NCBI RefSeq assembly: GCF_035084215.1
Contig: NC_090331.1
Span: 56,730,001 to 56,794,000 of the forward strand
DNA length: 64,000 nucleotides
Direction: 5' to 3'
From: Heptranchias perlo
Lineage: Eukaryota
Below the pieces are notes generated by a model. That model saw nothing but the letters and a program-made list of their open reading frames with translations. It made no database searches and had not been told where the DNA came from. The first letter of the stretch is position 1. Each line of letters starts with the position of its first letter. The translations under genes and the position numbers were made by a program. Positions 21,401 through 45,400 of the stretch are shown here, piece by piece.

Positions 21401-24400
21401 CTGTGCCAACATCATTGGTGACGTGGCAAGTATAGTATCCTGTATTAGAATGTTTTACTGAGTACAGTTGTACAAAACTGGATGAACCTTCCGTCACAAT
21501 GCAACATGTAGCATCAGAATTTAGTTCCTTGTCATCCTTAAACCATTTGAAAGACAGGGGAGGTGTTCCTTTCACATCACTCTTGAACTGTACTGCAGAA
21601 TAGGGGGGCACCTCCTGTGACAATGGTTTTACTATAAATCTTGGTGGTTCTAAAATTCATTGAAGAAAAAATATATTTGTCGCAATAAAGAGCACATATA
21701 AAAAGATTCATCAACTTTTGTGTTATAAACTACATAACTAATAAATTCAGAGTAATTATTTCAAACTTTCAAGAAATTCTGGCAAGGTTAAAATATGATA
21801 TGACTGACAAGTACCATGTTAAGAAATTGAGCAGAAACAGTAAGACAATATTTCAAACCTTTCACAGTTAGTGTGCCACTGCATTCATCACTTCCTGCTA
21901 CATTTGATACTCTGCAAGTATAAATTCCACCATCTGCGATTTCTAGTTGATTAATCTCCAAAGATGAAGCGTTATCTCGCTGTGATAGTTTATATTTGTT
22001 ACTATCTGATATCTCTTTCCCATCCTTATACCAATCAATGCTCATTGGAAGAGAAGCAGATACTTTGCACTCCATGGACATGAAAGACCCTAATACAGAG
22101 CCCGTATCCTTTAATTTTTTCGTAAATGTTGGAGCAACTAATCGATCTGTACAATACAGAGCACAACCTGTAAGCTTAAAGTGTAAAAGTAGCCTAAAAC
22201 ACCTGCTTTGTTTTCATGCTTTAACTGCAATCCTTTTCACATCCAAATCTCTCAATACATTTAAAATACTAACCTAATACTGTCAAGGAAGCTTTGCAGC
22301 TGTCGACTCCAAACTCATTCTGGACCTCAAAAGTATATTCACCACTACTCGCCTTCTCTACGGATAGAATCTTTAGACTGGCCATGTTTTTCTCAAAGGT
22401 CAATTTGCATTTTCTGCTGGATGTGAGCTCCTTTCCATCCTTAAACCATTTAACTTTTAGGTCTGGTGTACCAGCTACAGTACATTCCAAAATTGCTGGA
22501 TTTCCTACAGTTACACTGCATGATTTTATTTCCTCAACAATTTTTGCAGATTCTGTTAAGAAAAAATACTCTGCTGAGTAATGTTGTCAGTATGTTTAAT
22601 ATTTTAATGTGGCCTTCTTTTTCACATTAGTATGATAAACAAATATGAATTTGGCAGTAACTGACTTTTACATGTTAGTCAATCATGTTTCCTACCAACC
22701 TGTTACTATCAACGTAGCAAAACATTTCTCAATCCCTGCATCATTTTTGGCCTGACAGATGTATTTCCCACCATGTTTTTCTTCAACAGTTGTAATTTGT
22801 AGGATAGAAATATTGTTTTCAAAAGAAATTGCTGTGTTATCATCTTCTTTGATATCATCATTATCTTTCATCCAACTTATCGATAAAGGTTGTGAGCCTT
22901 TTACAAGGCATTGAAATATAGTAGAATTTCCAGCAATTGTTGTAACATTTTCAATCTTCCTTATAAATGATGGGGGTTCTGGTTCAAGGTAAATAGGCAT
23001 ACAAATAAATATGAGTAATTTGCTCTGTCCTCTTTAATGATTATAATAAAATGGCAATACATACTGTATTTGGAACTATTCCCTAAAATGTCAACATTAC
23101 ACGTTAGCTGCTAAAACTGTGCTATGTGATGAAGGTAAAAGTATTTTCTTATTACAATGTAACTAACCTTTTAAATTGACACCACAACTGCAGGAGCAGC
23201 TTCCCACATCATTTGTTACTATGCATTTATAGTCACCGACGTCTGAAACATCCAACTTCAAAATATGAAGACTAACTAAAGAGTTCTTAGTGAGCATCTT
23301 GTATTTTTCACTAGATGGAATTTGTTTATTGTCCTTATACCACATAACGTCAAAGGGACCTGTGCCAGCCATCTCACATTCAAGAGTGACACCACTGGCT
23401 TTTACTACCTCAGCAGATTGAAGTTTCCTTCTAAAACTGGGAGGTTCTATAAAGTAATCACAATAAAGAAATCCAAATCAACCAAAAAGCAGAAACTAAC
23501 AGTATCCCTCCTCAAGAAACTAACATATATATTTTGTTACCAAATTAAAGAAGACATTATTACAGACCTTTAACTTCAACTTCACTGCTGCAGCTGTCAC
23601 TACCAGCTTCATTCCGTGCTTCACAGATGTAGCATGAACTGTCATCCAAAATAACATCAATAATCTCAAGAACTGCCACGGAACTATCAAATGACATCAT
23701 ACACTTGTCACTGGCTATAATTTCATGGCCGTTTTTGTACCAAGTAACTCTGATTTCAGGTGTGCCAGTTACAATGCACTCAAAACGTGCTGAGACTCCT
23801 TTCTTTAGTATTGTTGAAGAATCTAGCTTTTTAATGAAGCTAGGAGGTTCTAGAAGCCAAAATATTACAAACTTCAATATACATTTAAAGGATAATCAAA
23901 AGCAATTCAAACTAATATTTAGATATAAATAATTGGCTACATAACATTTACAGACTAAATTTATAATTTTTTTAAAAACTTAGTTTAAAACTCAAATAGA
24001 GCTCTGTGTATGGTAAAGTAAACTGCATTTCCTTTTTCATATGCTATCGGGTTCCGTAATTGCTGCCTCCACCAAAATAGTTCTTCCTTCCATAGGAGGG
24101 GTGGGGCATTGTCGGCTGTGAAAGTCCTCAAAATTGACATCATTATAAGTTTACGATCAGATGATACCAATCAATTTTAGTGAGACTGTTGGTTTTGCCA
24201 ATTCTTCTTTGAATGGAGACAGAATTCTCCACCACTACATGATGCTCCACCAAGCAGTTAATGATAAATCATCGAGTCTAACTGTGAGACCAGACTTGAA
24301 TGCCAGACGATTATCACTGCCCCCTCTCCCTGGTTGGGAGTGTGAAGTTCTACCACTAGAGTTCACCAACCATCAAATAAACAAATTGTTGTTTCCAAAC

Positions 24401-27400
24401 TTTTAAAATAGCAAAGCAGAGAAAACAGTTTTATATAAAATAGAACTGCAGCAAAAATACAGAAATGCACACCTTTAACAAACAATTTTGCAGAACAGGC
24501 ATCTGTGCCAACATCGTTGCTAACTTGGCAGGTGTAACTACCCGCATCAGATACTTTGGATGAAAACAGCTCTAACAAATATGTTGAGCCTTCATTCCAC
24601 ATAGAATATGTCACACCAGGCATCAATTCCCTGTTCTCTTTGAACCATTTTGTAGACAGTGGTGTGGTCCCTTTCACAACACTCCTAAACTGCACTGTAG
24701 AACCAAGTATAACATCCTGGGACATTATTTTGGCTGAAAAGCTTGGGGGCTCTAAAATTCACACAAAAAGAAAACATTTAATGAGCTCAGATGTACATAC
24801 AAGTTAGAAGAGCTGATCAGAGTAAAGACAACTTTATGAATAACACATGCTAACATATCCATTAAAAACCTAAGAACACTTAAGAAAATGAAGATAGAGA
24901 TGGCCTATCAGTTTTGGTTACTTCACTATCGCAGCAAAAACAAATAGAAACTGTTTGGCTAAGAAAACAAGTATTTGTTTATAGTACTGAAGAGAAAGAA
25001 ATATAGCAAAGCAATGTTTCAAACCTTTTACACTTAAGACAGCACTGCATTCATCCCTTCCTGCTGAATTTGCTGCTTTGCATGTGTAAATTCCACCGTC
25101 TGAAAAGTCTAACTCATTGACCTCTAAAGACACCATGTTGTCTTGAAATGACATCTTGTATTTGTTACTAGCTGATATTTCTCTGTCATCTTTATACCAA
25201 GAAATGCTCATTGGAATGGAACCAGAAAGTTTGCATTCCATTCGTACCAAAGATCCTAAAGTACTGCCCATTTCCTTTAGTTTTCTTGTAAACAATGGAG
25301 CAATTATTTGTTCTGTCCAATATAAAGAAAAAAAATCACAATACATCAATAAAAGTATTATAACTTTGTGATAAACTTTGGTTTTAAAATAAATGCTTGA
25401 TGAAATCAAAGCCATCGACACTAATTAATCACTGACCTATCACTGTCAAAGAAACATGGCAGCTGTTGGCTCCAAACTCATTCTGGACCTTAAAAGTATA
25501 GTCACCACTGTCAGCCATTTCAACAGAAAGAATTTTTAGACTGGCCACCTTATTCACAAAACTCATCTTATATTTTCTATTTGATTCCAGTTGCTTTCCA
25601 CTTTTGAACCATGCAACATTTAATTCTGGTGTACCAGCTACAGTACATTCCAAAATGGCTGGATTTCCTGCAGTCACTGTGAGTGGCTCAGTTTTCTCTA
25701 TAATATTCGCAGGTTCTGTGGGAAAAATTAGATATTTTACATCAGGAGAACTATGTAATATTTATGGTAGGATTGTTATTTTAAGAAAATAAATTTGGGG
25801 GCATGGACTGCACAACGGGTTTGATATCGCATGGACCTGGGTTCAAATCCAGTCAAGACAGCTGCAATAAAAATCTCATCTACATGCTTGCTGTAAGTGT
25901 TCCATGTGAAATTAGTTTGGGCAGTCTCAATATAGCTCCCAATGGGTTTGTGCATAAACTGTCTCTCAGTGGGCATTAAGTTAGAAATCTCATTCAGAGA
26001 CCTCGCAAAATAGATGGGGTGGGAAATGGGAAAATGACACACAGATACAGTGGAAATGCTCTTCTGAGGATGTGCAAGAGGCACATTTTTGGGGCAGAAT
26101 AGAGGGAGCTATACCCTGCATTTAACTGCCACACCGGAGTGCTTGATCCTGACAATGGTTGCACGACATGGAAAATGTCCCCTTTGTCAGTAATAGCATT
26201 CCTCACCTTGATGATCATAAATTAATTTAAAAACATTCAAATAATTTTACTGTGGAAAAGTAAATATTATGAAACAGAGATCAATAATTTGTGGACAATA
26301 CATATGCTCATTACTTCCTACTAACCCATTACGGTCAACGTGGCAAAACATTTTGCAGTTCCCGCATCATTCTTTGCCTGACAAATATAATTTCCACTGT
26401 GATTTTCTTCAACCTTAATAATCTGTAATGTGGCAACATTGTTTTCAAAGGACATTTTTACATTATCATCTTCTTTGACATGTTTGCCATCTTTCTTCCA
26501 GTTTGTAGATATAGGAACTGAGCCTTTTACAAGACATTGAAATACAGCAGAATTTCCAGAAAATACTGTTGCATTTTCTATTGTTTGTACGAAGGTTGGT
26601 CGCTCTAGTTTAAAGAGAATATACTCTGTTATAATTGACAATTATACAACCAATCTTCAATTATTGCAAATATTGTGCTTCAAGACATTCAATAACACCT
26701 AACAGGAAGATGACAACAAAGCAGATACCACACAACATCCAGGTAAAATCACTTACTAGAACTGGATTGTAACTGACCTTTCAAATTGACTGTAGAACTG
26801 CAGGAACAACATCCCACATCATTTTTTACTGTACACTTGTATTCACCAACATCTGAGCTATCAGACTTTAGAATGCAAAGACTGGCTAAAGAATTCTCAG
26901 AGACCATTTTGCATTTTTTACTGCGTCGAATTTGTTTATTGTCCTTATACCACATAACGTCAAAGGGACCTGAACCGGCCACCTCACATTCAAGTGTGAA
27001 ATCACTGGTTTTTACTACCTCAACTTGCTCAAGCTTCTTCGTAAATGTGGGAGGTTCTAAAGAGTAAACACATTAACATGGTTTACAAATCACAGCCACT
27101 AAATTCAATTTCTGCACAGTGTCTCCCAACAATAATCATTAACACCAAAAAATATTTCCGTGATCTTTAATTGAATGTGTGATGGCTAATCATGGACGAC
27201 AAACCAACACACAGATGTTTTCTCCTCCAGCTTATTATTTAATGCACATCAGTCAAATACTTCAACAAATACCATTCACATTTTTTCTTTTATACATAGC
27301 TACAATTTTCAATGGCATTATCAGCCCTCAACGTTAATAATTTAGCCTAGATGCACGTGACTTTAGCATGTAAAAAAGGAGGAATTTTAATTCCCCTGAT

Positions 27401-30400
27401 CAGCAGGAACAAAGAGGGGGAGCAGTTAAAACGGAGCGTCTCCATTTGCCGCTCTGTTCCCGTCACTTCCCTATTTTAGCACCGCTGGTTTTGGCGGCGG
27501 ATGTGGCGACCACTGGACTGCATCAGGAGCTGCACTAATAAATGCAAATCGGGGTCCCATAACGTACATGGAACGCAAGTGGCATTTTAACGTTCTCCTG
27601 AGCGAGATGGGCGGCACGGCTGCCCCGACAGGTAAAGTTGTCAGGGAGTCAGCGAGGGTACATTAAGAATGCATCCATAATGGGACCAGGAAGAGCACGA
27701 GAGCTACTCCGGACCCCACAGAGATATTCTGGGCCTCTATTGCTCTGGGCTTCCCCCCTCCTCAGTAATGAGACCCTCACAACACAGCACCACCAACCCC
27801 CACCCCACTCCCAGACTTACCTTGCTGCCGGCAGCCTTCTAGGTGCCAGAGCTTGGTCTTCAATCATTCCCCCCCCCCCCCCCCCCCCCGCTGCCAGCCA
27901 TCCCCCCAGCCAGCCAGCTGCCACTTTCGCTCGAAACAGATGAGCAGCTGAAAAGCGGCATTTAAATTAGGCCAAGCAGTTAATATCTGCCGGAGCCTCT
28001 GATGAAGACTCCTGCATGGCCTGGTCCTGCCAGCTTCCCACTGGAAATTAAAATCAGTCCTTAGGAGTCAACTTAAAAATGTACGAGTAAAATGTTTACA
28101 TTATGTTTCATAAATCAATTTGAGAGAAGGAGCTGGTGGCAAGTGAATAATAATTGTTATTAGCCAATTATAAAACAGCTATAAAACCAGGCTGATGAAG
28201 TCAAGGCTCCCAAATATTCTATAATTAAGCACAAGACACTTGCAACATTTTCGGAAAGACCCATTAGCTTCTGATGGAAAATTTAACTTGGAATTTTTAC
28301 ACACCTTTAACTGTAACTTTAATATCGCAAGATTCACTGCCAGCTTCATTTTGTGCTTTACAGGAATAATTCCCACTGTTATCCAGGCTTATATCAGCAA
28401 TCTCAAAGATTGCCACAGAATCAACAAATGACATTCTGTATTTTTCACTGGCTCTAATTTCACGATTATTGCTGAACCAAGTGATTTTGATTTCAGGTGT
28501 GCCAGTTACTTTGCACTCAAAATTTGCTGTCTCTCCTTTTTTAAATATTGCCGTAAGATCTAACTTCTTAATGAAATATGGAGGTTCTAGAGAAGAAAAT
28601 GTAGTAAATTTAAATATAAATGCAAAAGTCTGAAACAAACCCATACAACATAAAAAGGAACAATGAAATGCATGCAACATATAAAGGAATTAAGGAAGAC
28701 AACACACCACACAATAGCAACATCAAAAATAAGAAATAAGAGATAAGTATGTAACAATCCAAAGAAAAATAACTTTACAGACATGTAAACTTTTGAAACT
28801 GGAACACATCAGAATTTTAACTATGTTCCACAATGGTTTAAAAAGTGAACCTAAAATGCACACCTTTGATAAATAGTCTTGTCGTACAAGTGGCGCTGCC
28901 AACCTTGTTGCTGACTTCACAAGTATAGTCACCCATGTCAGAAACTTTAGCTGAAAACAACTCTAGTAAACTTGTTGAACCTTCACTTAAAATGAAACAA
29001 TCAGCTCCAGACATCAGTTCCCTGCCATCCTTCAGCCATTTTATAGATAGTGGAGCAGTTCCTTTCACAACACTTCTAAACTGCACTGCGGAACCAGGTA
29101 GACTTTCCTGGGCTACGGGTTTTTCTATAAAACTTGGTGGCTCTAAAAGTCAGGTGAAAAAAAAATAGAATTGGATCCCTGTAGGACTTAATTTACAATG
29201 TGTAAGATATCAACAAAAATAAAATGGCAGAGCTAAAATTAGAACTTACTATAAATTGCATAACAAATTTTAAACACTATGTAGTGATCCTTTTTAGGGC
29301 AACAAGCAAAAATCAGAAACTGCTGAATAAGTGCAAATTATATGCAAAAGCTATAGTAGGAACTGAAACAAAGCAAGCTCATCTTTCAAACCTGTTATAT
29401 TTAAGATACCACTGCATTCATCCATTCCTGCTGAATTGGTTGCTTTGCAAATATAAGTTCCATGATCTGAAATCTCCAGTTGATTAACTTCCAAAGTTGT
29501 TTTGCTATCTTGACATAATACTTTGTATTTTTCACTAGTTGTTATTATTTTGTAATCTTTAAACCATGAAAAGCTCATTGGAAGAGAACCAGAAACTTTG
29601 CATTCCATATGTATGAAAGATCCTAAAATACTGTCCATTTTCCGTAATTTTCTTGTAAACAATGGGGGAATTATTTGATCTGTCCAAGATAAAGTGACAA
29701 AAGCACAGCCAATCAACTTAAACAGCAAATATTTGCAAGTGCTTTAAATGAATCAAATCCACTGTGATTGTTTACAATAAGACTTAATGATTTCAAAAGT
29801 GGAATTTTCATATTTATTAGGATGTTCTTTCTGAGACCATTCAAAACAAAACTTATTTTAAAACTCTCAACACAGCTAATCTGCCGACTCTCATCATTAC
29901 AACAAACAACTTGCATTTATATAGCAACGCGCGTCACAGGTGCGTAATCAAACAAAATCTGACATTGAGCCACGTAAGGAGATATTAAGACTGGTGACAT
30001 AGGTTTTAAGGAGCGTCTTAAAGGAGGAGAGAGAGGGAGAGAGATGGGAGTTTTAGGGAGGGAATTCCAGAGCTTAGGGCCTAGGCTGCTGAAGGCACGA
30101 CTGCCAATAATGAACATCATAACAATAAGAGACTTTATATATGTTTATGGTTGATGTGATCAGGATTTCTTTATTTGCAAGCAAAATTTTCAAATGACAC
30201 TGGATATTTAAATTAGTCAAATTCTAAATGCAAATAAAACACTAACCTAGTACTGTCAATGAAGCTTTACAACTGCTGGTTCCAAATTGATTCTTGACCT
30301 CAAAAGTGTATTCAGCACTATCATCATTGGAAACAGAAGGAATCTTTAGGCTGACCACATTATTCTCAAAGCTGATTTTGTGTTTTCTGCTAGGTACCAT

Positions 30401-33400
30401 TTCATTTCCATCCTTAAAACATTTAATTTTTAGTTCTGGTGTACCAGTTACAGTACATTCCAGATTTGCTGCATTTCCTGCGGTCACACTGAGTGACTGT
30501 GCTTGTTCTGTGATTTTTGCTGGTTCTATGAGAAAAAAAAATCTCTTCAATATATCAAAAGCAAAATACTGCGGATGCTGGAAATCTGAAATAAAAACAG
30601 AAATTGCTGGAAAAGCTCAGCAAGTGAGGCAGCGTCTGTGGAGGAAGAAACAAAGTCAATGTTTCAGGTCGAAGACCTTTCATCAGAATTGGAAGATGTT
30701 AAAGTTTTTGAGCAGGTACAGAGCCAGGGAAAGGGGAGGAAAGGACAAAAGGGAAGGTCTGTGATAGGGTAGTGGGCAAGAGTGATTAAATGTCAAAAGG
30801 GATGATGGTGCGAGGCAAGGAAGGTGGTAATGGGACAGGTTCAGAAACAAAAGATTGGTCAAGAGTAGCTGTAAATGGCAACAGCAGAACCATTACCAGC
30901 AGTTGCTGTCTGAAAAAATGGAAGCAGTGGTTATGAACTGAAGTTATTGAAATCAATGTTGAGTCCAGAAGGTTGTAAAATGCCTAATCGAAAGATGAGG
31001 TGCTGTTCCTCGAGCTTACATTGAGCTTCATTGGAACAGTGTAAGAGGCCGAGGACAGAGAGGTCAGTGTGGGAGCGGGGCGGGGAATTAAAATGCCAAG
31101 CGACCGGCAGGTCAGGGTCACGCTTGTGGACAGAATGGAGATGTTCAGGAAAGCACAACCAATCTGTGTTTGGTCTCCCCAATGTAGAGGAGACCACATT
31201 GTGAGCAGAGAATACAGTATACTAAATTGAAAGAAGTACAAGTAAATCGCTGTTTCAACTGGAAGGATTGTCTGGGGACCTGGACGATGGTACATCTGCA
31301 ATATATTACTGGTATGAATCTCATTTTAGTTGATACATGATATAGAATATGAACCCACTTGTAACTAGCAAAAACTTTGGAGTGGAGAGTACTAATAAGC
31401 TAACAAATATCCTACTGACCTGCTACCGACAATGTGGCAACACACTTCTCAGTTCCTGCATCATTCTTGACCTGACACGTATATTTCCCAGCATGATTTT
31501 CTCCAACAGCATTTATTTGAAGAGTAGCAATATTATTCTCAAAAGACAATGTAATATTACCATCTTCTTGGATATCATCTTTATCTTTCATCCAAGTTAC
31601 ATACATAGGCTTTGAGCCTCTCAATAGACTTTGGAATACAATAGAATTCCCTGACAATGTTGTTATATTTTCAATCTTCTTTATAAATCCTGGGGGTTCT
31701 AGTTTAAAACAAATGATAATATGAATATTTGAACATTTTTCATAGCTCTTCATTATGGTTCTTAAAATGCTTTAATGTAAAAGGTAGAAGGCTTCCACAT
31801 ATAGCTTGGCAATGCATTCTCTAATGGAGAACATAGATAACAAAAATGGCACTATAAATAGTGGAAGAAAAATAGGTTCTGACCGCACACTATAACTGAC
31901 CTTTCAAACTGACTATAGAAGTGCAGGTACAACTCCCCACATCATTTTTTACAGTGCACTTGTATTCGCCAACATCTGATACATCAGAGTTTAGAATGCA
32001 AATGATAGCTAAAGAATTCTCAGAGATCATTTTGTATTTTTTGCTGCGTCGAATTTGTTTATTGTCCTTATACCACATAACGTCAAAGGGACCTGTGCCA
32101 GCCACCTCACATTCAAGAGTGATATCACTGGTTTTAACTATCTCAGCAGATTGAAGTTTCCTTCTAAAACTGGGAGGTTCTATAAAGTAATCACAATAAA
32201 GAAATCCAAATCAACCAAAAAGCAGAAACTAACAGTATCCCTCCTCAAGAAACTAACATATATATTTTGTTACCAAATTAAAGAAGACATTATTACAGAC
32301 CTTTAACTTCAACTTCACTGCTGCAGCTGTCACTACCAGCTTCATTCCGTGCTTCACAGATGTAGCATGAACTGTCATCCAAAATAACATCAATAATCTC
32401 AAGAACTGCCACGGAACTATCAAATGACATCATACACTTGTCACTGGCTATAATTTCATGGCTGTTTTTGTACCAAGTAATTCTGATTTCAGGTGTGCCA
32501 GTTACAATGCACTCAAAACGTGCTGAGACTCCTTTCTTTAGTATTGTTGAAGAATCTAGCTTTTTAATGAAACGAGGAGGTTCTAGAAGCCAAAATATTA
32601 CAAACTTCAATATACGTTTAAAGGATAATCAAAAGCAATTCAAACTAATATTTAGATATAAATAATTGGCTACATAACATTTACAGACTAAATTTATAAT
32701 TTTTTTAAAAACTTAGTTTAAAACTCAAATAGAGCTCTGTGTATGGTAAAGTAAACTGCATTTCCTTTTTCATATGCTATCGGGTTCCGTAATTGCTGCC
32801 TCCACCAAAATAGTTCTTCCTTCCATAGGAGGGGTGGGGCATTGTCGGCTGTGAAAGTCCTCAAAATTGACATCATTATAAGTTTACGATCAGATGATAC
32901 CAATCAATTTTAGTGAGACTGTTGGTTTTGCCAATTCTTCTTTGAATGGAGACAGAATTCTCCACCACTACATGATGCTCCACCAAGCAGTTAATGATAA
33001 ATCATCGAGTCTAACTGTGAGACCAGACTTGAATGCCAGACGATTATCACTGCCCCCTCTCCCTGGTTGGGAGTGTGAAGTTCTACCACTAGAGTTCACC
33101 AACCATCAAATAAACAAATTGTTGTTTCCAAACTTTTAAAATAGCAAAGCAGAGAAAACAGTTTTATATAAAATAGAACTGCAGCAAAAATACAGAAATG
33201 CACACCTTTAACAAACAATTTTGCAGAACAGGCATCTGTGCCAACATCGTTGCTAACTTGGCAGGTGTAACTACCCGCATCAGATACTTTGGATGAAAAC
33301 AGCTCTAACAAATATGTTGAGCCTTCATTCCACATAGAATATGTCACACCAGGCATCAATTCCCTGTTCTCTTTGAACCATTTTGTAGACAGTGGTGTGG

Positions 33401-36400
33401 TCCCTTTCACAACACTCCTAAACTGCACTGTAGAACCAAGTATAACATCCTGGGACATTATTTTGGCTGAAAAGCTTGGGGGCTCTAAAATTCACACAAA
33501 AAGAAAACATTTAATGAGCTCAGATGTATATACAAGTTAGAAGAGCTGATCAGAGTAAAGACAACTTTATGAATAACACATGCTAACATATCCATTAAAA
33601 ACCTAAGAACACTTAAGAAAATGAAGATAGAGATGGCCTATCAGTTTTGGTTACTTCACTATCGCAGCAAAAACAAATAGAAACTGTTTGGCTAAGAAAA
33701 CAAGTATTTGTTTATAGTACTGAAGAGAAAGAAATATAGCAAAGCAATGTTTCAAACCTTTTACACTTAAGACAGCACTGCATTCATCCCTTCCTGCTGA
33801 ATTTGCTGCTTTGCATGTGTAAATTCCACCGTCTGAAAAGTCTAACTCATTGACCTCTAAAGACACCATGTTGTCTTGAAATGACATCTTGTATTTGTTA
33901 CTAGCTGATATTTCTCTGTCATCTTTATACCAAGAAATGCTCATTGGAATGGAACCAGAAAGTTTGCATTCCATTCGTACCAAAGATCCTAAAGTACTGC
34001 CCATTTCCTTTAGTTTTCTTGTAAACAATGGAGCAATTATTTGTTCTGTCCAATATAAAGAAAAAAATCACAATACATCAATAAAAGTATTATAACTTTG
34101 TGATAAACTTTGGTTTTAAAATAAATGCTTGATGAAATCAAAGCCATCGACACTAATTAATCACTGACCTATCACTGTCAAAGAAACATGGCAGCTGTTG
34201 GCTCCAAACTCATTCTGGACCTTAAAAGTATAGTCACCACTGTCAGCCATTTCAACAGAAAGAATTTTTAGACTGGCCACCTTATTCACAAAACTCATCT
34301 TATATTTTCTATTTGATTCCAGTTGCTTTCCACTTTTGAACCATGCAACATTTAATTCTGGTGTACCAGCTACAGTACATTCCAAAATGGCTGGATTTCC
34401 TGCAGTCACTGTGAGTGGCTCAGTTTTCTCTATAATATTCGCAGGTTCTGTGGGAAAAATTAGATATTTTACATCAGGAGAACTATGTAATATTTATGGT
34501 AGGATTGTTATTTTAAGAAAATAAATTTGGGGGCATGGACTGCACAACGGGTTTGATATCGCATGGACCTGGGTTCAAATCCAGTCAAGACAGCTGCAAT
34601 AAAAATCTCATCTACATGCTTGCTGTAAGTGTTCCATGTGAAATTAGTTTGGGCAGTCTCAATATAGCTCCCAATGGGTTTGTGCATAAACTGTCTCTCA
34701 GTGGGCATTAAGTTAGAAATCTCATTCAGAGACCTCACAAAATAGATGGGGAGGGAAATGGGAAAATGACACACAGATACAGTGGAAATGCTCTTCTGAG
34801 GATGTGCAAGAGGCATATTTTTGGGGCAGAATAGAGGGAGCTATACCCTGCATTTAACTGCCACACCGGAGTGCTTGATCCTGACAATGGTTGCACGACA
34901 TGGAAAATGTCCCCTTTGTCAGTAATAGCATTCCTCACCTTGATGATCATAAATTAATTTAAAAACATTCAAATAATTTTACTGTGGAAAAGTAAATATT
35001 ATGAAACAGAGATCAATAATTTGTGGACAATACATATGCTCATTACTTCCTACTAACCCATTACGGTCAACGTGGCAAAACATTTTGCAGTTCCCGCATC
35101 ATTCTTTGCCTGACAAATATAATTTCCACTGTGATTTTCTTCAACCTTAATAATCTGTAATGTGGCAACATTGTTTTCAAAGGACATTTTTACATTATCA
35201 TCTTCTTTGACATGTTTGCCATCTTTCTTCCAGTTTGTAGATATAGGAACTGAGCCTTTTACAAGACATTGAAATACAGCAGAATTTCCAGAAAATACTG
35301 TTGCATTTTCTATTGTTTGTACGAAGGTTGGTCGCTCTAGTTTAAAGAGAATATACTCTGTTATAATTGACAATTATACAACCAATCTTCAATTATTGCA
35401 AATATTGTGCTTCAAGACATTCAATAACACCTAACAGGAAGATGACAACAAAGCAGATACCACACAACATCCAGGTAAAATCACTTACTAGAACTGGATT
35501 GTAACTGACCTTTCAAATTGACTGTAGAACTGCAGGAACAACATCCCACATCATTTTTTACTGTACACTTGTATTCACCAACATCTGAGCTATCAGACTT
35601 TAGAATGCAAAGACTGGCTAAAGAATTCTCAGAGACCATTTTGTATTTTTTACTGCGTCGAATTTGTTTATTGTCCTTATACCACATAACGTCAAAGGGA
35701 CCTGAACCGGCCACCTCACATTCAAGTGTGAAATCACTGGTTTTTACTACCTCAACTTGCTCAAGCTTCTTCGTAAATGTGGGAGGTTCTAAAGAGTAAA
35801 CACATTAACATGGTTTACAAATCGCAGCCACTAAATTCAATTTCTGCACAGTGACTCCCGACTATAATCACTGGCATCAAAAAATATTTCCGTGATCTTT
35901 AATTGAATGTGTGATGGCTAATCATGGACGACAAACCAACACACAGATGTTTTCTTCTACAGCTTATTATTTAATGCACATCAGTCAAATACTTTAATAA
36001 ATACCCTTCACATTTTTTCTTTCATACATAGCTACAATTTTCAATGGCATTATCTGCCCTCAATGTTAATTAATTAGCCGAGGTGCACATGACTTCAGCA
36101 TATAAAATAAAGGGATGAGGAATTTTAACTCTCCCTTATCAGCAGGAATGAAGAGGGGGTGCAGATAAAATGGAGTGGCTCCATTTCCTGCTCTGTTCCC
36201 GCCAATTCCCCATTTTAACACCGTTAGTTTTGGCGGCAGATGAGGCGACCACTGGACTGCGGCAGGATCCGCACTAATAAATGGAAATCGGGGTCGCAAT
36301 TCGTACATGGGACACATGTGGCATTTTAATGTTCTCCTGTTTCAGCTGTCCGCCAGTTAAAGTTGTAGGGAAGCTAATGAGGCCTTCGTGATCAATTAAA

Positions 36401-39400
36401 AATCTTTCCTTTGTGGGATCAGGAGGAGCTCAGGTGGTACTCCGGGCCCCGCAAAGAAAGTCTCGGCTTTTCTGCCCCGGGCTTACCCTCTCCCCACCCA
36501 TGCAACGCTTGCAAAACTTCCCCTCCCAGACTAACCTTACTGCCAGCATCCTTCTCTTGGTGCTAGAGGGCAGCCTACATTCACTCCCCATCACCCTGGC
36601 AAGCCAGCTGCTGCTTTCTGCTCGAAATGGACAAGCAATTGAATGGCGGCATTCGAATAGGGCCGAGCAGTTAAAATCTGCCGGGGCCTCCAATGAAGAC
36701 TCCTGCACAGTCTGGTCCTGCCAGCTTCCCGCCGGTAATTAAAAGTTTAAAATGTACGAGTAAAATGTTTGCATTATGTTTCATAAATCAATTTGAGAGA
36801 AGGAGCTGGTGGCAAGTGAATAATAATTGTTATTAGCCAATTATAAAACAGCTATAAAACCAGGCTGATGAAGTCAAGGCTCCCAAATATTCTATAATTA
36901 AGCACCAGACACTTGCAACATTTTCGGAAAGACCCATTAGCTTCTGATGGAAAATTTAACTTGGAATTTTTACACACCTTTAACTGTAACTTTAATATCG
37001 CAAGATTCACTGCCAGCTTCATTTTGTGCTTTACAGGAATAATTCCCACTGTCATCCAGGCTTATATCAGCAATCTCAAAGATTGCCACAGAATCAACAA
37101 ATGACATTCTGTATTTTTCACTGGCTCTAATTTCACGATTATTGCTGAACCAAGTGATTTTGATTTCAGGTGTGCCAGTTACTTTGCACTCAAAACTCGC
37201 TGTCTCTCCTTTTTTAAATATTGCCGTAAGATCTAACTTCTTAATGAAATATGGAGGTTCTAGAGAAGAAAATGTAGTAAATTTAATTATAAATGCAAAA
37301 GTCTGAAACAAACCCATACAACATAAAAAGGAACAATGAAATGCATGCAACATATAAAGGAATTAAGGAAGACAACACACCACACAATAGCAACATCAAA
37401 AATAAGAAATAAGAGATAAGTATGTAACAATCCAAAGAAAAATAACTTTACAGACATGTAAACTTTTGAAACTGGAACACATCAGAATTTTAACTATGTT
37501 CCACAATGGTTTAAAAAGTGAACCTAAAATGCACACCTTTGATAAATAGTCTTGTCGTACAAGTGGTGCTGCCAACCTTGTTGCTGACTTCACAAGTATA
37601 GTCACCCATGTCAGAAACTTTAGCTGAAAACAACTCTAGTAAACTTGTTGAACCTTCACTTAAAATGAAACAATCAGCTCCAGACATCAGTTCCCTGCCA
37701 TCCTTCAGCCATTTTATAGATAGTGGAGCAGTTCCTTTCACAACACTTCTAAACTGCACTGCGGAACCAGGTAGACTTTCCTGGGCTACGGGTTTTTCTA
37801 TAAAACTTGGTGGCTCTAAAAGTCAGGTGAAAAAAAAATAGAATTGGATCCCTGTAGGACTTAATTTACAATGTGTAAGATATCAACAAAAATAAAATGG
37901 CAGAGCTAAAATTAGAACTTACTATAAATTGCATAACAAATTTTAAACACTATGTAGTGATCCTTTTTAGGGCAACAAGCAAAAATCAGAAACTGCTGAA
38001 TAAGTGCAAATTATATGCAAAAGCTATAGTAGGAACTGAAACAAAGCAAGCTCATCTTTCAAACCTGTTATATTTAAGATACCACTGCATTCATCCATTC
38101 CTGCTGAATTGGTTGCTTTGCAAATATAAGTTCCATGATCTGAAATCTCCAGTTGATTAACTTCCAAAGTTGTTTTGCTATCTTGACATGATACTTTGTA
38201 TTTTTCACTAGTTGTTATTATTTTGTAATCTTTAAACCATGAAAAGCTCATTGGAAGAGAACCAGAAACTTTGCATTCCATATGTATGAAAGATCCTAAA
38301 ATACTGTCCATTTTCCGTAATTTTCTTGTAAACAATGGGGGAATTATTTGATCTGTCCAAGATAAAGTGACAAAAGCACAGCCAATCAACTTAAACAGCA
38401 AATATTTGCAAGTGCTTTAAATGAATCAAATCCACTGTGATTGTTTACAATAAGACTTAATGATTTCAAAAGTGGAATTTTCATATTTATTAGGATGTTC
38501 TTTCTGAGACCATTCAAAACAAAACTTATTTTAAAACTCTCAACACAGCCAATCTGGCTACTCTCATCATTACAACAAACAACCTGCATTTATATAGCGC
38601 CTTTAATGTCGAACGTACCAAGGCGATTCACAGGAGCGTTGTCAAATAAAATTGCCATTGAGCCAAATAAGGAGATATTAATACAGGTGACCGAAAGCTT
38701 GGTCGAAGAATTAGGATTTTAGGAGGGTCTTAAAGGAGGAGAGAGAGTTAGAGCGGCGGAGTGGTTTAGGGAGGGAATTCCAGAACTTAGGGCCTAGGCT
38801 GCTGAAGGCACGGCCACTAATAAGATCAATAATGAATATTATGACAATAAGAACCTTTATATATATTTATGGTTGATGTGATCAGGATTTCTTTATTTGC
38901 AAGCAAAATTTTCAAATGACACTGGATATTTAAATTAGTCAAATTCTAAATGCAAATAAAACACTAACCTAATACTGTCAATGAAGCTTTACAGCTGCTG
39001 GTTCCAAATTGATTCTTGACCTCAAAAGTGTATTCAGCACTATCATCATTGGAAACAGAAGGAATCTTTAGGCTGACCATATTATTCTCAAAGCTGATTT
39101 TGTGTTTTCTGCTAGGTACCATTTCATTTCCATCCTTAAAACATTTAACTTTTAGTTCTGGTGTACCAGTTACAGTACATTCCAGATTTGCTGCATTTCC
39201 TGCGGTCACACTGAGTGACTGTGCTTGTTCTGTGATTTTTGCTGGTTCTATGAGAAAAAAAAATCTCTTCAATATACTACGGATATGAATCAATAGTTAG
39301 TTGATACATGATAAAGAATATGAACCCACTTGTAACTAGCAAAAACTTTGGAGTGGAGGGTACTATAAAGCTAACCAATATCCTACTGACCTGCTACTGA

Positions 39401-42400
39401 CAAAGTGGCAAAACACTTCTCAGTTCCTGCGTCATTCTTGACCTGACACATATATTTCCCAGCATGATTTTCTTCAACAGCATTTATTTGAAGAGTAGCA
39501 ATATTATTCTCAAAAGACAATGTAATATTACCATCTTCTTGGATATCATCTTTATCTTTCATCCAAGTTACATACATAGGCTTTGAGCCTCTCAATAGAC
39601 TTTGGAATACAATAGAATTCCCTGACAATGTTGTTATATTTTCAAGCTTCTTTATAAATCCTGGGGGTTCTAGTTTAAAACAAATGATAATGTGAATATT
39701 TGAATATATTTCACAGTTTTTCATTATGGTTCTTAAAACGCTTTAATATTCCACAAATAGCTTAGCAATGCATTCTCTAATGAGGAACACAGATAACTAA
39801 AATGGCACTATAAACAGTGGAAGAAAAATAGGTTCTGACAACACTCTATAACTGACCTTTCAAACTGACTGCAGAACTACAGGAACAACTCCCCACATCA
39901 TTTTTTACTGTGCACTTGTATTCGCCAACATCTGATACATCAGATTTTAGAATGCAAAGACTGGCTAAAGAAGTCTCAGAGATCATTCTGTATTTTTTGC
40001 TGCGTCGAATTTGTTTATTGTCCTTATACCACATAACGTCAAAGGGACCTGTACCGGCCACCTCACATTCAAGAGTGATATCACTGGTTTTAACTACCTC
40101 AACCGGTTCAAGTTTCTTTATAAATGTGGGAGGTTCTAAAGAGCAAACACAACAATGTGGCTTAGGAAACAATCAAATGCCAAAAGCTAAATCTCTCTTT
40201 AAGCATATCTGATATTATTTTACACACCTTTAACCTGGACCACAAAGTTGCAGCTATTACCACCAGCTTCATTTTGCGCTTCACAGGAATAATCCCCACT
40301 ATCTTCCACAATTACATCAGCAACCTCGAGAACAGCCAATGAGTTTTGAAATGATATGCTGTATTTGTCACTGGTTCTAATATCATGGTTATTTCTGTAC
40401 CATGTGACTGTGATTTCAGGTGTACCAGTTACTTTGCTCTCAAAATGTGCAAATTCTCCCTGTTTCAGTACTGTTGAAGGAGATGGCTTCTTAACAAAAC
40501 TTGGAGGTTCTGGGAAAATTAAATGCAATAAACCTGAATACTGCAAGTACAAAGTAAAGTTAGGGCACATGAAGAATAGATTAGTAGACAAGTGACTAAA
40601 AGACACCTTCAGATAAATGTTACTCAACTTTGATTTTAAGAAAACTAAGGAAGAAATATAACACTGTTAAAAATGTTGCACAAAAATCATTTCTAATAAG
40701 ATTTACAAGAAAAGCAAACCTTTGATGAATACTTCTGCAGTACTGGTGATTGAACCAGCTTCATTGCTGAGTTGGCAGTTGTAAACACCAGCGTCAGAAA
40801 CTTTAGTTGACATTAGCTCAAAGAAGTGTGCTGCTTCTTCATTCCAAATGGAACATCTTGCACCAGGCTTCAATTCCCTATTATCTTTGAACCACTTGAC
40901 AGACAGTGGAAGAGTTCCTTTCACAACACTCTTAAACTGCAGTGTCGATCCTTGTGCAATTCCTTGGGACATTGGTTTTTCTATAAAGTTCGGTGATTCT
41001 ATAATTCATTTAAGAAAATGTTTTTTTATTAAGGTCAGATAAAGTAAATATAAAAATAATACTTCTAAAATTAATTACATAACTCTAGCATTTTACTACT
41101 GATCACAACATGTTAAAATATTTCAGGAAGTGGAAATACATACAATTTATCTAGGCATTCTACTGTTGCAGAAAAGAAGAAATAGAAAATGTTACAACTG
41201 GAAAATCAGCATTTGATGCGTCTTAAAATAGAAGTGGATTGGAGTAAAGAGATCTTCAAACCTTTTAAAGTTAAGAATCCACTGCATTCGCTACTTCCAG
41301 CAGTATTTGTTGCTTTGCAAGAGTAATTTCCACCATCTGTGATTTCAAGTTCTTTAATCTCCAAAAATGCTGTATTTTCTTCAAATGATATTTTGTATTT
41401 GTCACTAGTTATTATCTCTTTGTTATCTTTATACCAAGAAATGCTGATTGGAAGAGAACCAGATACTTTGCACTCCATGTGCATCAAAGTCCCCAATATG
41501 TTATTCATTTTCTTTAAACTTCTTGTAAAGGATGGAGCAATTATTCGATCTGTCCAACACAGAACAACGAAAATAGTTTGTCAGCTAAAATATCAAAGGG
41601 GAGATTTAACTCACTCTACTCAGTGGAAACGAGGTGGTAATGTTGTTAAAATGGAGGTGCTGGACTTTCTGCTCCATTCCCACTCCACTATTATTTTTCC
41701 CGGGACCTTCTGCTTGGCGGCTGATGGGCACACCGGAAACAAGCAGGAGCCTCATTAATCTATGCAAACTGTGGCCTTATGTACGTCTTATGACATACTT
41801 AGGACTTTGATGCAATTTTATGGCCTACCACGCTGGACGTGTGCCTTGCATGCCTCTGCTCAGTAAGACCTGGTGGTACAGCAGAAAAGGCCCAAAAAGC
41901 TAAGTGTGAAAATTATTTTTATGGGGCCAGGAGGATCAATGGTGCTTCTCTGGGACTTCACACGAAGAAAGTAGGATGCTGCTGCACTGGGATCCCCCCC
42001 TCCACGATTATATCCTCCCCTCCGGTCCTACCTTTCTGCCGGTTAGGTCAGCCTACAGGCCACCTGACATTGCACTAGCCCTGAGCCAGCAAGCTGCAGT
42101 AGGACTGAGTGTAATGTATCCAAGTTTGCTGATGATACAAAGCTAGGTGGGAAAGTAAGCTGTGAGGAGGACAAAAAGAGTCTGCAAAGGGATATAGACA
42201 GGTTAAGTGAGTGGGCAAGAAGGTGGCAGATGGAGTATAATATGGGGAAATGTGAGGTTATTCACTTTGGTAGAAAGGATAGAAAAACAGAATATGTTTT
42301 AAATGGTGAGAAACTATTAAATGTTGGTGTCCAGGGAGACTTGGGTGTCCTGGTACAAGAAACACAAAAAGTTAGCAGGCAGGTTTTTGTGACTGGAAGG

Positions 42401-45400
42401 TTGTTTCAAGTGGGGTTCCGCAGGGCTCAGTACTAGGTCCCTTGCTTTTGTGGTATATATTAATGATTTGGACTTAAATGTAGGGGGCATTATTAAGATG
42501 ATACAAAAATTGGCCATGTGGTTGATAGTGAGGAGAAAAGCTGTAGAAGATATCAATGGACTGGTCAGGTGGGTAAAAAAGTAGCAAATGGAATTCAATC
42601 TGGAGAATTGTGAGGTAATGCATTTGGGGAGGGCAAACAAGGCAAGGGAATACACAATAAATGGGAGGATACTGAGAGGCGTAGAGGTAGTGAGGGACCT
42701 TGGAGTGCATGTCCACAGATCCCTGAAGATAGCAGGACAATTAGGTAAGGTGGTTATGAAGGGATACTTTCCTTTATTAGGCGAGGCACAGAATATAAGA
42801 GCAGGGAGATTATGCTAGAACTGTATAAAACACTAGTTAGGCCACAGCTTGAGCACTGCATACAGTTCTAGTCACCACATTACAGGAAGGCTGTAATTGC
42901 ACTAGAGAGGGTACACTGGAGACTTACGAGGATGTTGCTGGAGTTGGAGAATTTTAGGAATATGAGGGAAGATTGGATAGGCTGGGGTTGTTTTCTTTGG
43001 AACAGAGGAGGCTGAGGGGTGATTTAATTGAGGTGTACAAAATTATAAAGGGCCTAGATGAAGTGGATAGGAAGGACCTATTTCCCTTAGCAGAGAGGTC
43101 AATAACCAGGGGGCACAGATTTGAAGTGATTGGTAGAAGGATTAGAGGGGAGCTGAGGAAAAAGTTTTTCACCCAGATGGTGGTAGGGGTCTGGAACTCA
43201 CTGCCTGAAAGGTTGGTAGAGACAGAAACCCTCATCACATTTAAAAAGTACTTGGGTATAGACTTGAAGTGCCATAACCTACAAGGCTATGGACCAATTG
43301 CTGGAAAGTGGGATTCGGCTGGGTGGCTCATTTCCAGCCGGCGTTGACATGATGGGCTGAATGGCCTCCTTCTGTGCCGTAAATTTTCTATGATTCTATT
43401 ATTCTGGGTACAGCAGGCAATTAGGAAATTAAATAGCATGTTGGCCTTTAATGCAAGGGGGTTGGAATATAAGAGTAAGGAAGTCTTACTACAGTTCTAC
43501 AGGGCTTTGATGAGATCACCCCTGGAGAACTGCGTACAGTTTTGGTCTCCTTATCTAAGGAAGGATATACTTGCCTTGGAGGCGGTGCAACAAATGTTCA
43601 CTAGATAATTTCCTGGGATGAGAGGGTTATCCTATGAGGAGAGGTTGAGTAGAATGGGCCTATACCCTCTGGAGTTTAGAAGAATGAGAGGTGATTTCAT
43701 TGAAACATATAAGATTCTGAGGGGGCTTGACAGGGTAGATGCTGAGAGGTGGTTTTCCATGGTTGGAGAGTCTAGAACTAGAGGGTATAGTCGCAGGATA
43801 AGGGGTTGGCCATTTAAGACTGAGATGAGGAGGAATTTCTTCACTCAGAGGGTTGTGAATCTTTGGAATTCTCTACCCCAGAGGGCTGTGGATGCTGAGT
43901 TGTTGGGCATATTCAAGGCTGAGACAAATAAATTTTTGGACTCTAGTGGAATCAAGGCATATGGGGATCGGGCAGGAAAGTGGAGTTGAGGTTGAAGTTC
44001 AGCCATGATCTTACTGAATGGTGGAGCAGGCTCGAGGGGCCGTATGGCCTACTTCTGCTCCTATTTCTTCTGTTCTTATGTTCTTAGGGCACTGGTTTGG
44101 GGCCTGCAGCACACTAGCGGCATGAAAATGAGGCCTGGCACTTGAAATGGACTGTGAGGGATTGGGCAGCTGGCCCGCTCACCCAACAACTGGCCACCCG
44201 ATAGTTAAAATTCACCCTTAAAATTTTGGCATGTTTTCCTTAAAGGCCCTGTAATATTCTACTAGCTGCTCAAGGCATGAAGATAATTATTACACAACCA
44301 TGAAGGAACTGAAGATGTTACTAAGAAATTGTCTCTAACCAATTGCACACATTTAGAAGATGGTATGATGACATGAAAACACAAATATGATTTCAGAACA
44401 TTTAAAATATACTTTTCTCATTCTAATTATGTTAAAATTATATTGGGCCTTTCCCTTTCAGCTTCTTTTTTGAGAGGCACAATCAAAGGTTTCAACACAT
44501 TAAAAAAAACACCAACCTAGTACTGTCATAGAAGTTGTGCAGCTGCTGTGTCCAAACTCATTCTGGACTTCAAAAGCATATTCCCCACTATCATCTTTAT
44601 CAACAGAAAGAACCTTTAGGATTGCCACCTTATTCACAAAAGTCATTTTATATTTCCTGCTTGATGTCAACTCAGCTCCATTCTTGAACCATCTAACTTT
44701 CAGTTCTGGGGTACCAGCAACAACACATTCCAAAATTGCAGGGGTTCCTGAAGTAATACTTAATGGCTCTGGCTTCTCTATAATTTGTGCAGGTTCTGCA
44801 AGAAAAACCATACTTCCTCAATAGATGAATTTAAAAAAACTGTTTGCATACTTGACACTTTACTGAAATTCACAAATGTCAAGTGTCTCATACTAACCTG
44901 TTACTAACAAGGTGGCAAAACACTTCTCAGTTCCTGCATCATTCCTGGCCTGACATGTGTACTTTCCACTGTGATTTGCTTCAATAGAAGCAATTTGCAG
45001 TACAGCAATACTGTTCTCAAAAGATATTTTAATATTGTCATCTTCTGTGATTTCATCTTTGTCCTTCATCCAAGTGACAAATATGGGAGCTGACCCTTCT
45101 ATTTGGCTGTCGAAAGTGGCTGGATTTCCAGATAATGTTGTAATGTTTTCAAGCTTTTTCACAAATGAAGGGGGTTCTGATTTAAAGTTAAAAGTCGTAT
45201 GAATTAGATATAAGATCAAACACTCAGTATTCTTTCATGCTAAAGTAATAATCCCATGTAAGAATGAATTGCAAAATGGGATTATTGAAAATGTCAAAAA
45301 AGAAAATGATTGGCATTTGATAACTGACCTTTTAATCTGACTCCAGCAATGCAAGAACAACTTCCCACATCATTTGTTACTTCACACTGGTATTCACCAG

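Follow-up and report, generated by a model that had tools for sequence, protein, structure and literature searches.

The content of the window, i.e., the whole 64-kb stretch of DNA that was analysed, is a cartilaginous-fish titin gene on the minus strand, and the two features that organise it are as follows:

13654..62136, minus strand: titin (connectin) middle-Ig region, one Ig domain per exon
59095 down to 21371, minus strand: eight super-repeats of six Ig domains each (SR1-SR8)

Based on count and position, a 10-Ig repeat probably follows SR8. AG/GT ends and open frames were found in all 54 exons examined, profile searches of the Ig domains returned Pfam I-set matches at an E-value of 2e-20, and the top PDB match was titin (3B43). 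In protein searches, chondrichthyan titin fragments matched with 73-77% identity, and fragments from Callorhinchus, Mobula, and Mustelus were placed in the same order (66-89%) on SR1-SR3, SR4_1, SR5/7, and SR8, i.e., the domains correspond one by one to those of chondrichthyan titin. Mean identity between domains was 0.59 at lag 6 versus 0.31-0.34 at lags 1-3, with adjacent Ig domains at most 47% identical and near-identity reached only at lag 12. Contigs from one sequencing run guessed to be RNA contained introns of the locus, and a search against Rfam yielded no match over 22000-41000. Among 18 other vertebrate titin fragments, 16 held no Ig pair of at least 90% identity; three 100% Ig pairs occurred in the other two and may be double calls.

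Twelve exons of this array are present twice in tandem, and the two copies meet within an in-frame hybrid exon:

23409..32141, minus strand: copy L, lying 3′ in gene direction, 12 exons in 8733 bp
32142..40096, minus strand: copy R, lying 5′ in gene direction, 12 exons in 7955 bp
31901..32179, minus strand: hybrid junction exon SR6_2, in frame, with informative sites
32051..32095, minus strand: 45-nt core, identical in SR4_2, SR5_2, SR6_2, SR7_2, and SR8_2

The 5′ ~38 nt of SR6_2 are SR8_2-like and the remainder is mostly SR4_2-like; in a letter survey, the T at position 32141 was present in one of nine type-2 exons. Both breakpoints of the unit lie inside exons. For the other five exon types, the identical stretch common to SR4, SR5, and SR8 does not exceed 9-14 nt. 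SR4_2 and SR5_2 share 91% nucleotide identity (70-78% for the other five types), which may be taken as an independent sign of short conversion. A tree of the type-2 domains (18 rows) had good support at 3 of 15 inner branches and was not used as evidence. None of the six chondrichthyan-type fragments mapped in protein searches spans the L/R junction, and they are thus uninformative on the presence of the duplication in those species.

L and R were compared by global alignment, with substitutions counted per aligned column (coordinates in L are given against those in R):

23409..27091 against 32142-35823: homogenised tract T1, 10/3682 (0.27%), one 1-nt indel, introns included
~25790..26230 against ~34520-34960: multi-copy repeat within T1, homogenised, 99.3% identity
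27092..27373 against 35824-36105: low-copy intron flank, 23/282 (8%), changes on both copies
27374..28069 against 36106-36742: GC-rich interspersed element, 133/619 (21.5%), 11 indels, core most diverged
28070..29876 against 36743-38549: homogenised tract T2, 10/1807 (0.55%)
29901..30105 against ~38574-38820, minus strand: 3′ fragment of a LINE that we take to be L2-like from a translated motif, in both copies with equal ends, 14%, large indels
30146..30551 against 38868-39273: third near-identical stretch, 4/406 (1%), holding exon SR6_4
~30555..31300, minus strand: retroelement fragment of ~740-750 nt, presumably Penelope-like, in copy L only
31313..32140 against 39284-40096: right end of the unit, diverged by 9-10% in introns and by 2.5% and 6.3% in exons

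The near-identity that the first-pass annotation had described over ~23410-27100 and ~28075-29880, introns included, was recovered as T1 and T2. The third near-identical stretch is an addition to these two. Its description of the GC-rich block as diverged holds for the element itself, but the first 280 bp of that block are ordinary low-copy intron at 8%. Likewise, of the last two exons, both given as diverged, the exon part 31901-32140 is so (15/240), but exon 31420-31698 differs at only 7/279 sites; the introns there differ at 10/107 (31313-31419) and 18/187 (31699-31900). The L2-like fragment is diverged as described, with 37/268 differences and 5 indels when its edges are included (29877-30145), and the Penelope-like insert is indeed missing from R in the alignment. 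Together, the three non-repetitive intron pieces differ at 51/576 sites (8-10%), and the two repeat islands at 14-21%. That identity is non-uniform was upheld by the longest identical run of 1207 columns, which exceeds the maximum of 425 in 20000 permutations and that of 928 obtained with both repeat islands removed. The contrast between the tracts and the non-repetitive diverged introns (Fisher p = 3e-38) is descriptive only, because the segments were picked by eye. GC-biased conversion was rejected, its direction being inconsistent between tracts (T1 7 vs 2, T2 1 vs 6).

The diverged islands are the indel-rich repeats. Within the GC-rich element, whose degenerate relative lies at 41583-42099, the core reaches ~22-36% divergence per 50 columns; CpG decay was rejected as the sole cause since only 19 of the 133 differences are CpG transitions. 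The L2-like fragment had no Pfam match, and its family is extremely abundant. For the Penelope-like insert, a weak GIY-YIG match (E 0.09) fell below the Pfam cut-off. Tract ends had been placed near transposons, which applies to the GC-rich element, the L2-like fragment, and the Penelope-like insert, but it fails as a rule for every repeat in the unit, as the ~25790-26230 repeat, over which depth is raised in all four runs, lies inside T1. Because this repeat is homogenised, repeats as such do not end tracts, and heterology predicts tract ends better than transposon identity.

The assembly was checked on contigs built from public sequencing runs of the same organism, in which depth is contig depth and not copy number. 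These data represent one individual, and contigs drop variants. Depth was 27.5-32.2 in stretches shared by L and R versus 11.2-18 in unique or diverged ones (T1 27.5, T2 30.9, unique flank 12.3). Differences of the contigs from L matched the L/R difference counts (11/11, 4/4, and 5/7), and the alternative letters in run X1 were exactly those of R at 29 of 31 compared sites. The L version of the GC-rich element was found at single-copy depth with 0 differences, and both versions of the right end were found. The L/R junction was bridged by 31 letters of a contig, and the long tract contigs contained no third version. The duplication is real and two-copy. Mis-polishing, which had been raised as a possible source of the identical tracts, is not supported, since doubled depth, a bridged junction, and the lack of a third version argue against polishing error as the cause.

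Evidence from relatives was taken from one contig lay-out, with 40 of 987 letter rows and 15 of 640 joints listed. Organism E is a relative, 7-12% diverged. Two of its contigs stop at the same position, 23444: one of 1029 nt from the flank, at depth 4.8, and another at depth 5, whose T at 23408 is the hybrid-specific letter. From 23414 onward a single contig takes over at depth 8.5, and those further into the unit, likewise collapsed at about twice the flank depth, range from 8.9 to 11.1. This merge point is the same left boundary as that of the unit here. Among the 15 of 640 joints listed, the L/R junction joint was absent for both E and organism B; the link to E's junction consists of one letter and the geometry. 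In B, flank depth was 19.7, five tract contigs ranged from 27.5 to 33.9, and two contigs at 28380 summed to 37.8, although the tract-to-flank ratio was only 1.4-1.7 with ~55% of the run read, and two contigs inside the unit were shallower than the flank (0.72 and 0.96 times its depth). Judged from contig topology, which speaks less strongly in B, the duplication probably predates the split from these relatives.

E differs from L at 184/1827 and 86/893 sites where L and R differ at 4 and 3. Over five T1/T2 intervals, L/R divergence is 0.07-0.35% versus 6.8-10.1% for E, and in T1 E differs from both copies by 9.6-10.1%, with 0.2-0.3% between L and R there. Paralogs here are therefore ~30-45 times closer than orthologs, a comparison that depends on the duplication predating speciation; if it does, concerted evolution follows. 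The initial suggestion, an older duplication whose copies were homogenised tract by tract, is thus supported by the left boundary, the approximately doubled depth, and the divergence in E. Letters at 24710 and 26076 common to L and R are missing in B and E, one E contig lacks the L2-like insert shared by L and R, and the Penelope-like insert is missing from an E contig. In the flank 27092-27373, 8 sites are listed, and E agrees with R at 5 of them and with L at 3; over 27122-27291 and 30118-30358 it agrees with R at 9 and with L at 7 of the 16 listed. At the tract sites it has L's letter at 7 of 11 listed, so that those L letters are not errors. An E contig runs unbroken through the GC-rich element, hence the barrier there is either not permanent or lineage-specific, and E appears to be homogenised over another map than here.

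We consider it probable that 12 exons were duplicated by a crossover before the split, and that repeated tract exchange followed, with indel-rich stretches escaping. Unequal crossing-over between type-2 Ig exons that lie two super-repeats from each other would have doubled 12 titin exons in frame and left the hybrid exon that is observed, and the contig topology would place this event before the split from relatives that have since diverged by 7-12%. Across the 8.7 kb separating them, the copies would since have undergone repeated kilobase exchanges, whether through non-allelic gene conversion or through double unequal crossover, resetting exons and introns alike to ~0.3%. Where indels or insertions have accumulated, as in the GC-rich element, the L2-like fragment, and the Penelope-like insert, pairing would be poor; such stretches would escape exchange and shelter adjacent intron, which could explain its drift to 8-10%. 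The predicted consequence for the protein is that its I-band spring in skeletal muscle is likely longer by 12 Ig domains. The copies have probably been kept near-identical by repeated copying since before the species split, and look far younger than their real age.

Multi-copy repeats make up the blocks of highest divergence, with an extremely abundant L2-like family among them, and this could also reflect a recent lineage-specific duplication whose islands were later overwritten, through ectopic conversion, by other members of their own repeat families; the doubled depth in E would then be due to noise or to a separate duplication arising in the same recombination-prone type-2 exon. The core of the GC-rich element is more diverged than the orthologs (9-12%), with few CpG transitions, type-2 exons look exchange-prone, and repeat-by-repeat replacement has been documented for Alu (PMC6598467). 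We nevertheless regard this as unlikely, as both copies have changed in the three low-copy intron pieces, the repeats have matching ends in the two copies, and E has the same boundary and the hybrid-specific letter. Very improbable is one old duplication followed by one large recent event (expansion to three copies and contraction, or a long conversion), after which the process may have stopped: T1 and T2 are similarly diverged, with no age difference (p = 0.32), but one continuous event would not skip the 1-kb island between them, differences within T1 cluster (p = 0.003), the third stretch has a slightly greater age than the tracts (p = 0.04, uncorrected), and E is seemingly homogenised over a different map.

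An assembly artefact, i.e., falsely doubled haplotypes or letters copied between copies by polishing, retains the faintest probability and is largely refuted. X1 may be the assembly's own sample, and its collapsed contigs show one letter at most tract sites, so that several L letters are not seen directly. Depth is doubled in the tracts, however, both diverged versions stand at single depth, the junction is bridged, no third version turns up among the long tract contigs, transitions make up 14 of the 20 differences in the tracts, and E carries L's letter at most of the tract sites listed.

The mechanism of repeated exchange between tandem copies is itself textbook knowledge. Human alpha-globin duplication units consist of homology blocks split by Alu-containing non-homology, and homogenised blocks are likewise interrupted here by repeat-bearing diverged ones, although alpha-globin is a whole-gene duplication. 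A survey of intragenic repeats found units more alike within than between species, as here, but the phenomenon was described as rare, with enrichment in host-parasite and similar functions, titin was mentioned 0 times, and, unlike the surveyed repeats, titin neighbours are dissimilar with identity only at lag 12. Primate red/green opsin genes are an example of tandem duplicates that evolve in concert by non-allelic gene conversion, which according to a review goes on until substitutions, transposon insertions, or large indels break pairing (PMC3924837). Adjacent tandem copies, homogenised introns, and paralogs closer than orthologs are common to both cases, whereas the titin unit is a multi-exon block in one gene and its divergence peaks in intronic repeats, not in selected exons. 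For cartilaginous-fish connectin/titin, six 6-Ig super-repeats are given in elephant shark and eight in whale shark (PMC12241362), i.e., the same region and unit, with eight repeats also here. The accessible sections of that paper treat growth as six-domain block duplication on protein trees without DNA identity analysis. They mention neither a 12-exon unit nor a hybrid exon or homogenisation, and they name transposons, as a speculation, as the driver of duplication; the breakpoints here, by contrast, are both exonic. As no chondrichthyan fragment found spans the junction, the eight repeats of whale shark may have arisen independently. The triplicated PEVK block of human titin and those of other mammals (PMC6469411) are also multi-exon tandem duplications with repeats nearby, but of PEVK and not Ig exons, and are attributed to recent LINE-1-mediated events; that text uses neither “conversion” nor “concerted”. 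No report of concerted evolution of titin Ig super-repeats was found in open-licence PMC and bioRxiv, although figure 4 of PMC12241362 might show whale-shark domains in pairs.

An age read from L/R identity would be ~30-fold or more too low. Because assemblies can collapse near-identical tracts of 4 kb, shark titin super-repeat counts may need checking, as may spring-length conclusions drawn from published counts. Unequal exchange in a recombination-prone exon class would provide a route for growth of the Ig spring that keeps frame and six-domain register with neighbouring domains staying dissimilar, consistent with the idea that neighbouring domains diverge to avoid misfolding (PMC4660218). 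The locus also lends itself, as a compact case, to testing what terminates conversion tracts: indels, or the presence of a transposon in itself. More tentatively, the duplication could be the same event as that behind whale shark's eight repeats and ancestral to many sharks, with near-identity kept per lineage and lineage-specific barriers arising abruptly when a repeat in one copy is overwritten by a foreign member of its family; we think this possible, though on balance doubtful. If true, shark titin would offer a natural series in which to measure the onset, end, and recovery of conversion tracts around repeats, with 24 spring domains evolving as though they were 12.

On the minus strand, the window carries tandem titin Ig domains, one exon each, of which 54 were defined (59095 to 16537); AG/GT ends and open frames were present in all 54, with lengths of 279, 282 or 288 nt. 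A test exon was an I-set domain (Pfam) with titin 3B43 as best solved relative, and the closest named proteins were titin fragments of Mobula, Mustelus and Callorhinchus (73–77%). Domain similarity has a period of six; eight 6-Ig super-repeats (SR1–SR8) were counted, followed by what is, from count and position, a probable 10-Ig repeat. The accessible parts of PMC12241362 give six 6-Ig repeats for the elephant shark and eight for the whale shark, and describe most of the segment as spliced out in heart and mostly retained in skeletal muscle. Short public gene models of cartilaginous-fish titin (P0002, P0003, P0004, P0016, P0133, P0216) end or start within SR3–SR8, possibly because this part of the gene is difficult to annotate or assemble. 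The type-4 domains at 38969–39247 and 30247–30525 have Cys at the core Trp position, where the other seven have Trp, and are possibly less stable.

Two super-repeats (twelve exons) are duplicated head to tail as copies L and R, listed here together with five type-2 exons:
23409–32141, minus strand, copy L
32142–40096, minus strand, copy R
39857–40135, minus strand, type-2 exon
35510–35788, minus strand, type-2 exon
31901–32179, minus strand, type-2 exon, hybrid
26778–27056, minus strand, type-2 exon
23168–23446, minus strand, type-2 exon

The junction lies inside the hybrid exon, whose first eight informative sites are those of SR8_2 (type 2 of super-repeat 8) and most later sites those of SR4_2. 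Judged from sequence, it would be the product expected if two type-2 exons, twelve positions from each other, had crossed over unequally without loss of frame or register. The type-2 exons, more alike than neighbouring exons, look exchange-prone on their own account: SR4_2 and SR5_2 share 91% of nucleotides and 79/92 third positions (other five exon types, 70–78%), and a 45-nt core is identical across all five listed, suggesting that exchange confined to the exon also takes place at lag 6. Protein searches and mapped titin fragments yielded no junction-spanning protein in other cartilaginous fishes; hence, the link to the whale shark's eight repeats is one of matching count only.

The mosaic of near-identical and diverged stretches described in the first-pass annotation was recovered. 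L and R differ at 10/3682 positions in tract T1 (L coordinates 23409–27091), 10/1807 in tract T2 (28070–29876) and 4/406 in a third stretch (30146–30551), versus 23/282, 10/107 and 18/187 in low-copy intron pieces, 133/619 in a GC-rich element and 37/268 around an L2-like fragment. None of 20000 permutations gave an identical run as long as the observed maximum (1207), whether or not the repeat islands were included. Tract introns (8/2910) are as alike as exons (10/2573), so that the identity is not explained by selection on the protein. The 10 coding differences in T1 and T2 cause 8 amino-acid changes (including Tyr to Cys in SR7_2); these counts, small as they are, give hardly any indication of purifying filtering, a pattern in line with polymorphisms or mutations of very recent origin.

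Two possible artefacts were checked, mis-polishing and a false duplication of haplotypes. Contigs of four public runs were compared with L and its left flank at 85% likeness, depth serving as a rough guide. Run X1, possibly from the very sample that was assembled, contains 0.90 of sampled words. Its unique flank had a depth of 12.3 and 0 differences, and its tract contigs depths of 27.5, 27.5 and 30.9, with 11, 4 and 5 differences from L (L/R differences there: 11, 4, 7). The first tract contig reaches 31 letters beyond the left boundary, so that it spans the L/R junction. L versions of the GC-rich element (depth 11.2) and last intron (depth 18) occurred with 0 differences, and X5, from the same sample, contained the right end of R, which lacks the Penelope-like insert. 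Letters were compared at 39 sites among the 40 of 987 rows listed (30773, in the L-only insert, was dropped); X1 had a non-L letter at 31/39 and R's letter in 29/31, both remaining letters lying in multi-copy repeats. Because collapsed X1 contigs carry a single letter at each site, part of the L letters did not show up directly. Depth, junction and letters together leave neither artefact supported.

The proposal of an older duplication homogenised in tracts was supported by a related organism, E (run X14), which differs from L by 6.7–12.5%, depending on segment. In T1, E and L differ at 184/1827 and 86/893 positions, L and R at 4 and 3 (~45- and 29-fold less). E's flank contig (1029 nt) has a depth of 4.8 and further contigs 9.13, 8.86 and 11.1, 1.8–2.3x the flank. 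At 23408, the depths of E's contigs add up to 9.8, and a contig with T at this site, 36 letters short of its end, contributes 5; among the nine type-2 exons of the window, T occurs at this position in the hybrid exon only. A contig of depth 8.53 begins at 23414, and 23414+30 equals 23408+36, a 30-letter overlap as between the next two contigs. This graph is the expectation for a tandem duplication sharing the left boundary. Heterozygosity at one site would not halve the depth along a kilobase of flank, though a second flank contig may have been filtered out. Organism B (run X6, ~55% read), where depth relative to the flank is 1.4–1.7 in five contigs but 0.72 and 0.96 in two others, is compatible with the duplication, more weakly than E. 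Letters common to L and R at 24710 and 26076 are absent from B and E.

Both the L2-like fragment and the Penelope-like insert are missing from E's 3788-nt contig. Should the duplication be older than the split, the L2-like insert would have had to spread from one paired copy to the other or be lost from both, and exchange would have left a direct trace here. This contig is continuous across the GC-rich element, where X1 contigs divide into single-depth versions; E thus seems homogenised over a different map. In B, a contig joins 29321 to L2-like sequence via 31 other letters, which suggests a separate insertion of that family in the unit. The L2 and Penelope labels are our assumption from translated motifs, with weak or absent Pfam support.

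The suggestion that tracts end near transposons held in part: three barriers carry indels of 8–27 nt or an entire insertion, but a multi-copy repeat (~25790–26230) lies within T1 at 99.3% identity. Divergence in the GC-rich element climbs from the left flank to the core (11–18 differences per 50 columns) and drops sharply at ~28076; in the core, L/R divergence exceeds ortholog divergence. CpG decay covers only 19/133 differences, and either longer isolation or overwriting of one copy by another family member would account for the core; overwriting is described for Alu in the consulted part of PMC6598467. L's element has a ~21-C run (27868–27889), absent from R, where reads are apparently cut. 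A third, degenerate family member lies at 41583–42099, in the intron between SR3_5 and SR3_4 (nhmmer E ~1e-22 to 1e-25). Repeat fragments at 42383–43400 and 59805–60845 form an inverted pair (88.5% over 1044 bp), with relatives at 7143–9422, 16852–17976, 43407–44086, 50333–50464 and 54123–54245.

Among the rows listed, where E polarises the differences, E matches R at 9 and L at 7 of 16 sites in diverged or edge sequence, and L at 7 and R at 4 of 11 tract sites; both copies have changed. For the low-copy flanks this agrees with each copy drifting on its own, and less with replacement of a single copy. The copies, 8.7 kb apart, would have undergone repeated non-allelic conversion or double unequal crossover, ended locally by heterology; according to the accessible text of PMC3924837, conversion goes on as long as pairing is not disrupted by substitutions, large indels or inserted transposons. 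With good confidence, we regard the duplication as real, and probably old and homogenised. Tandem duplicates that evolve in concert, with barriers associated with repeats, are already known; for titin Ig super-repeats, no such description was found in the open-licence literature covered.
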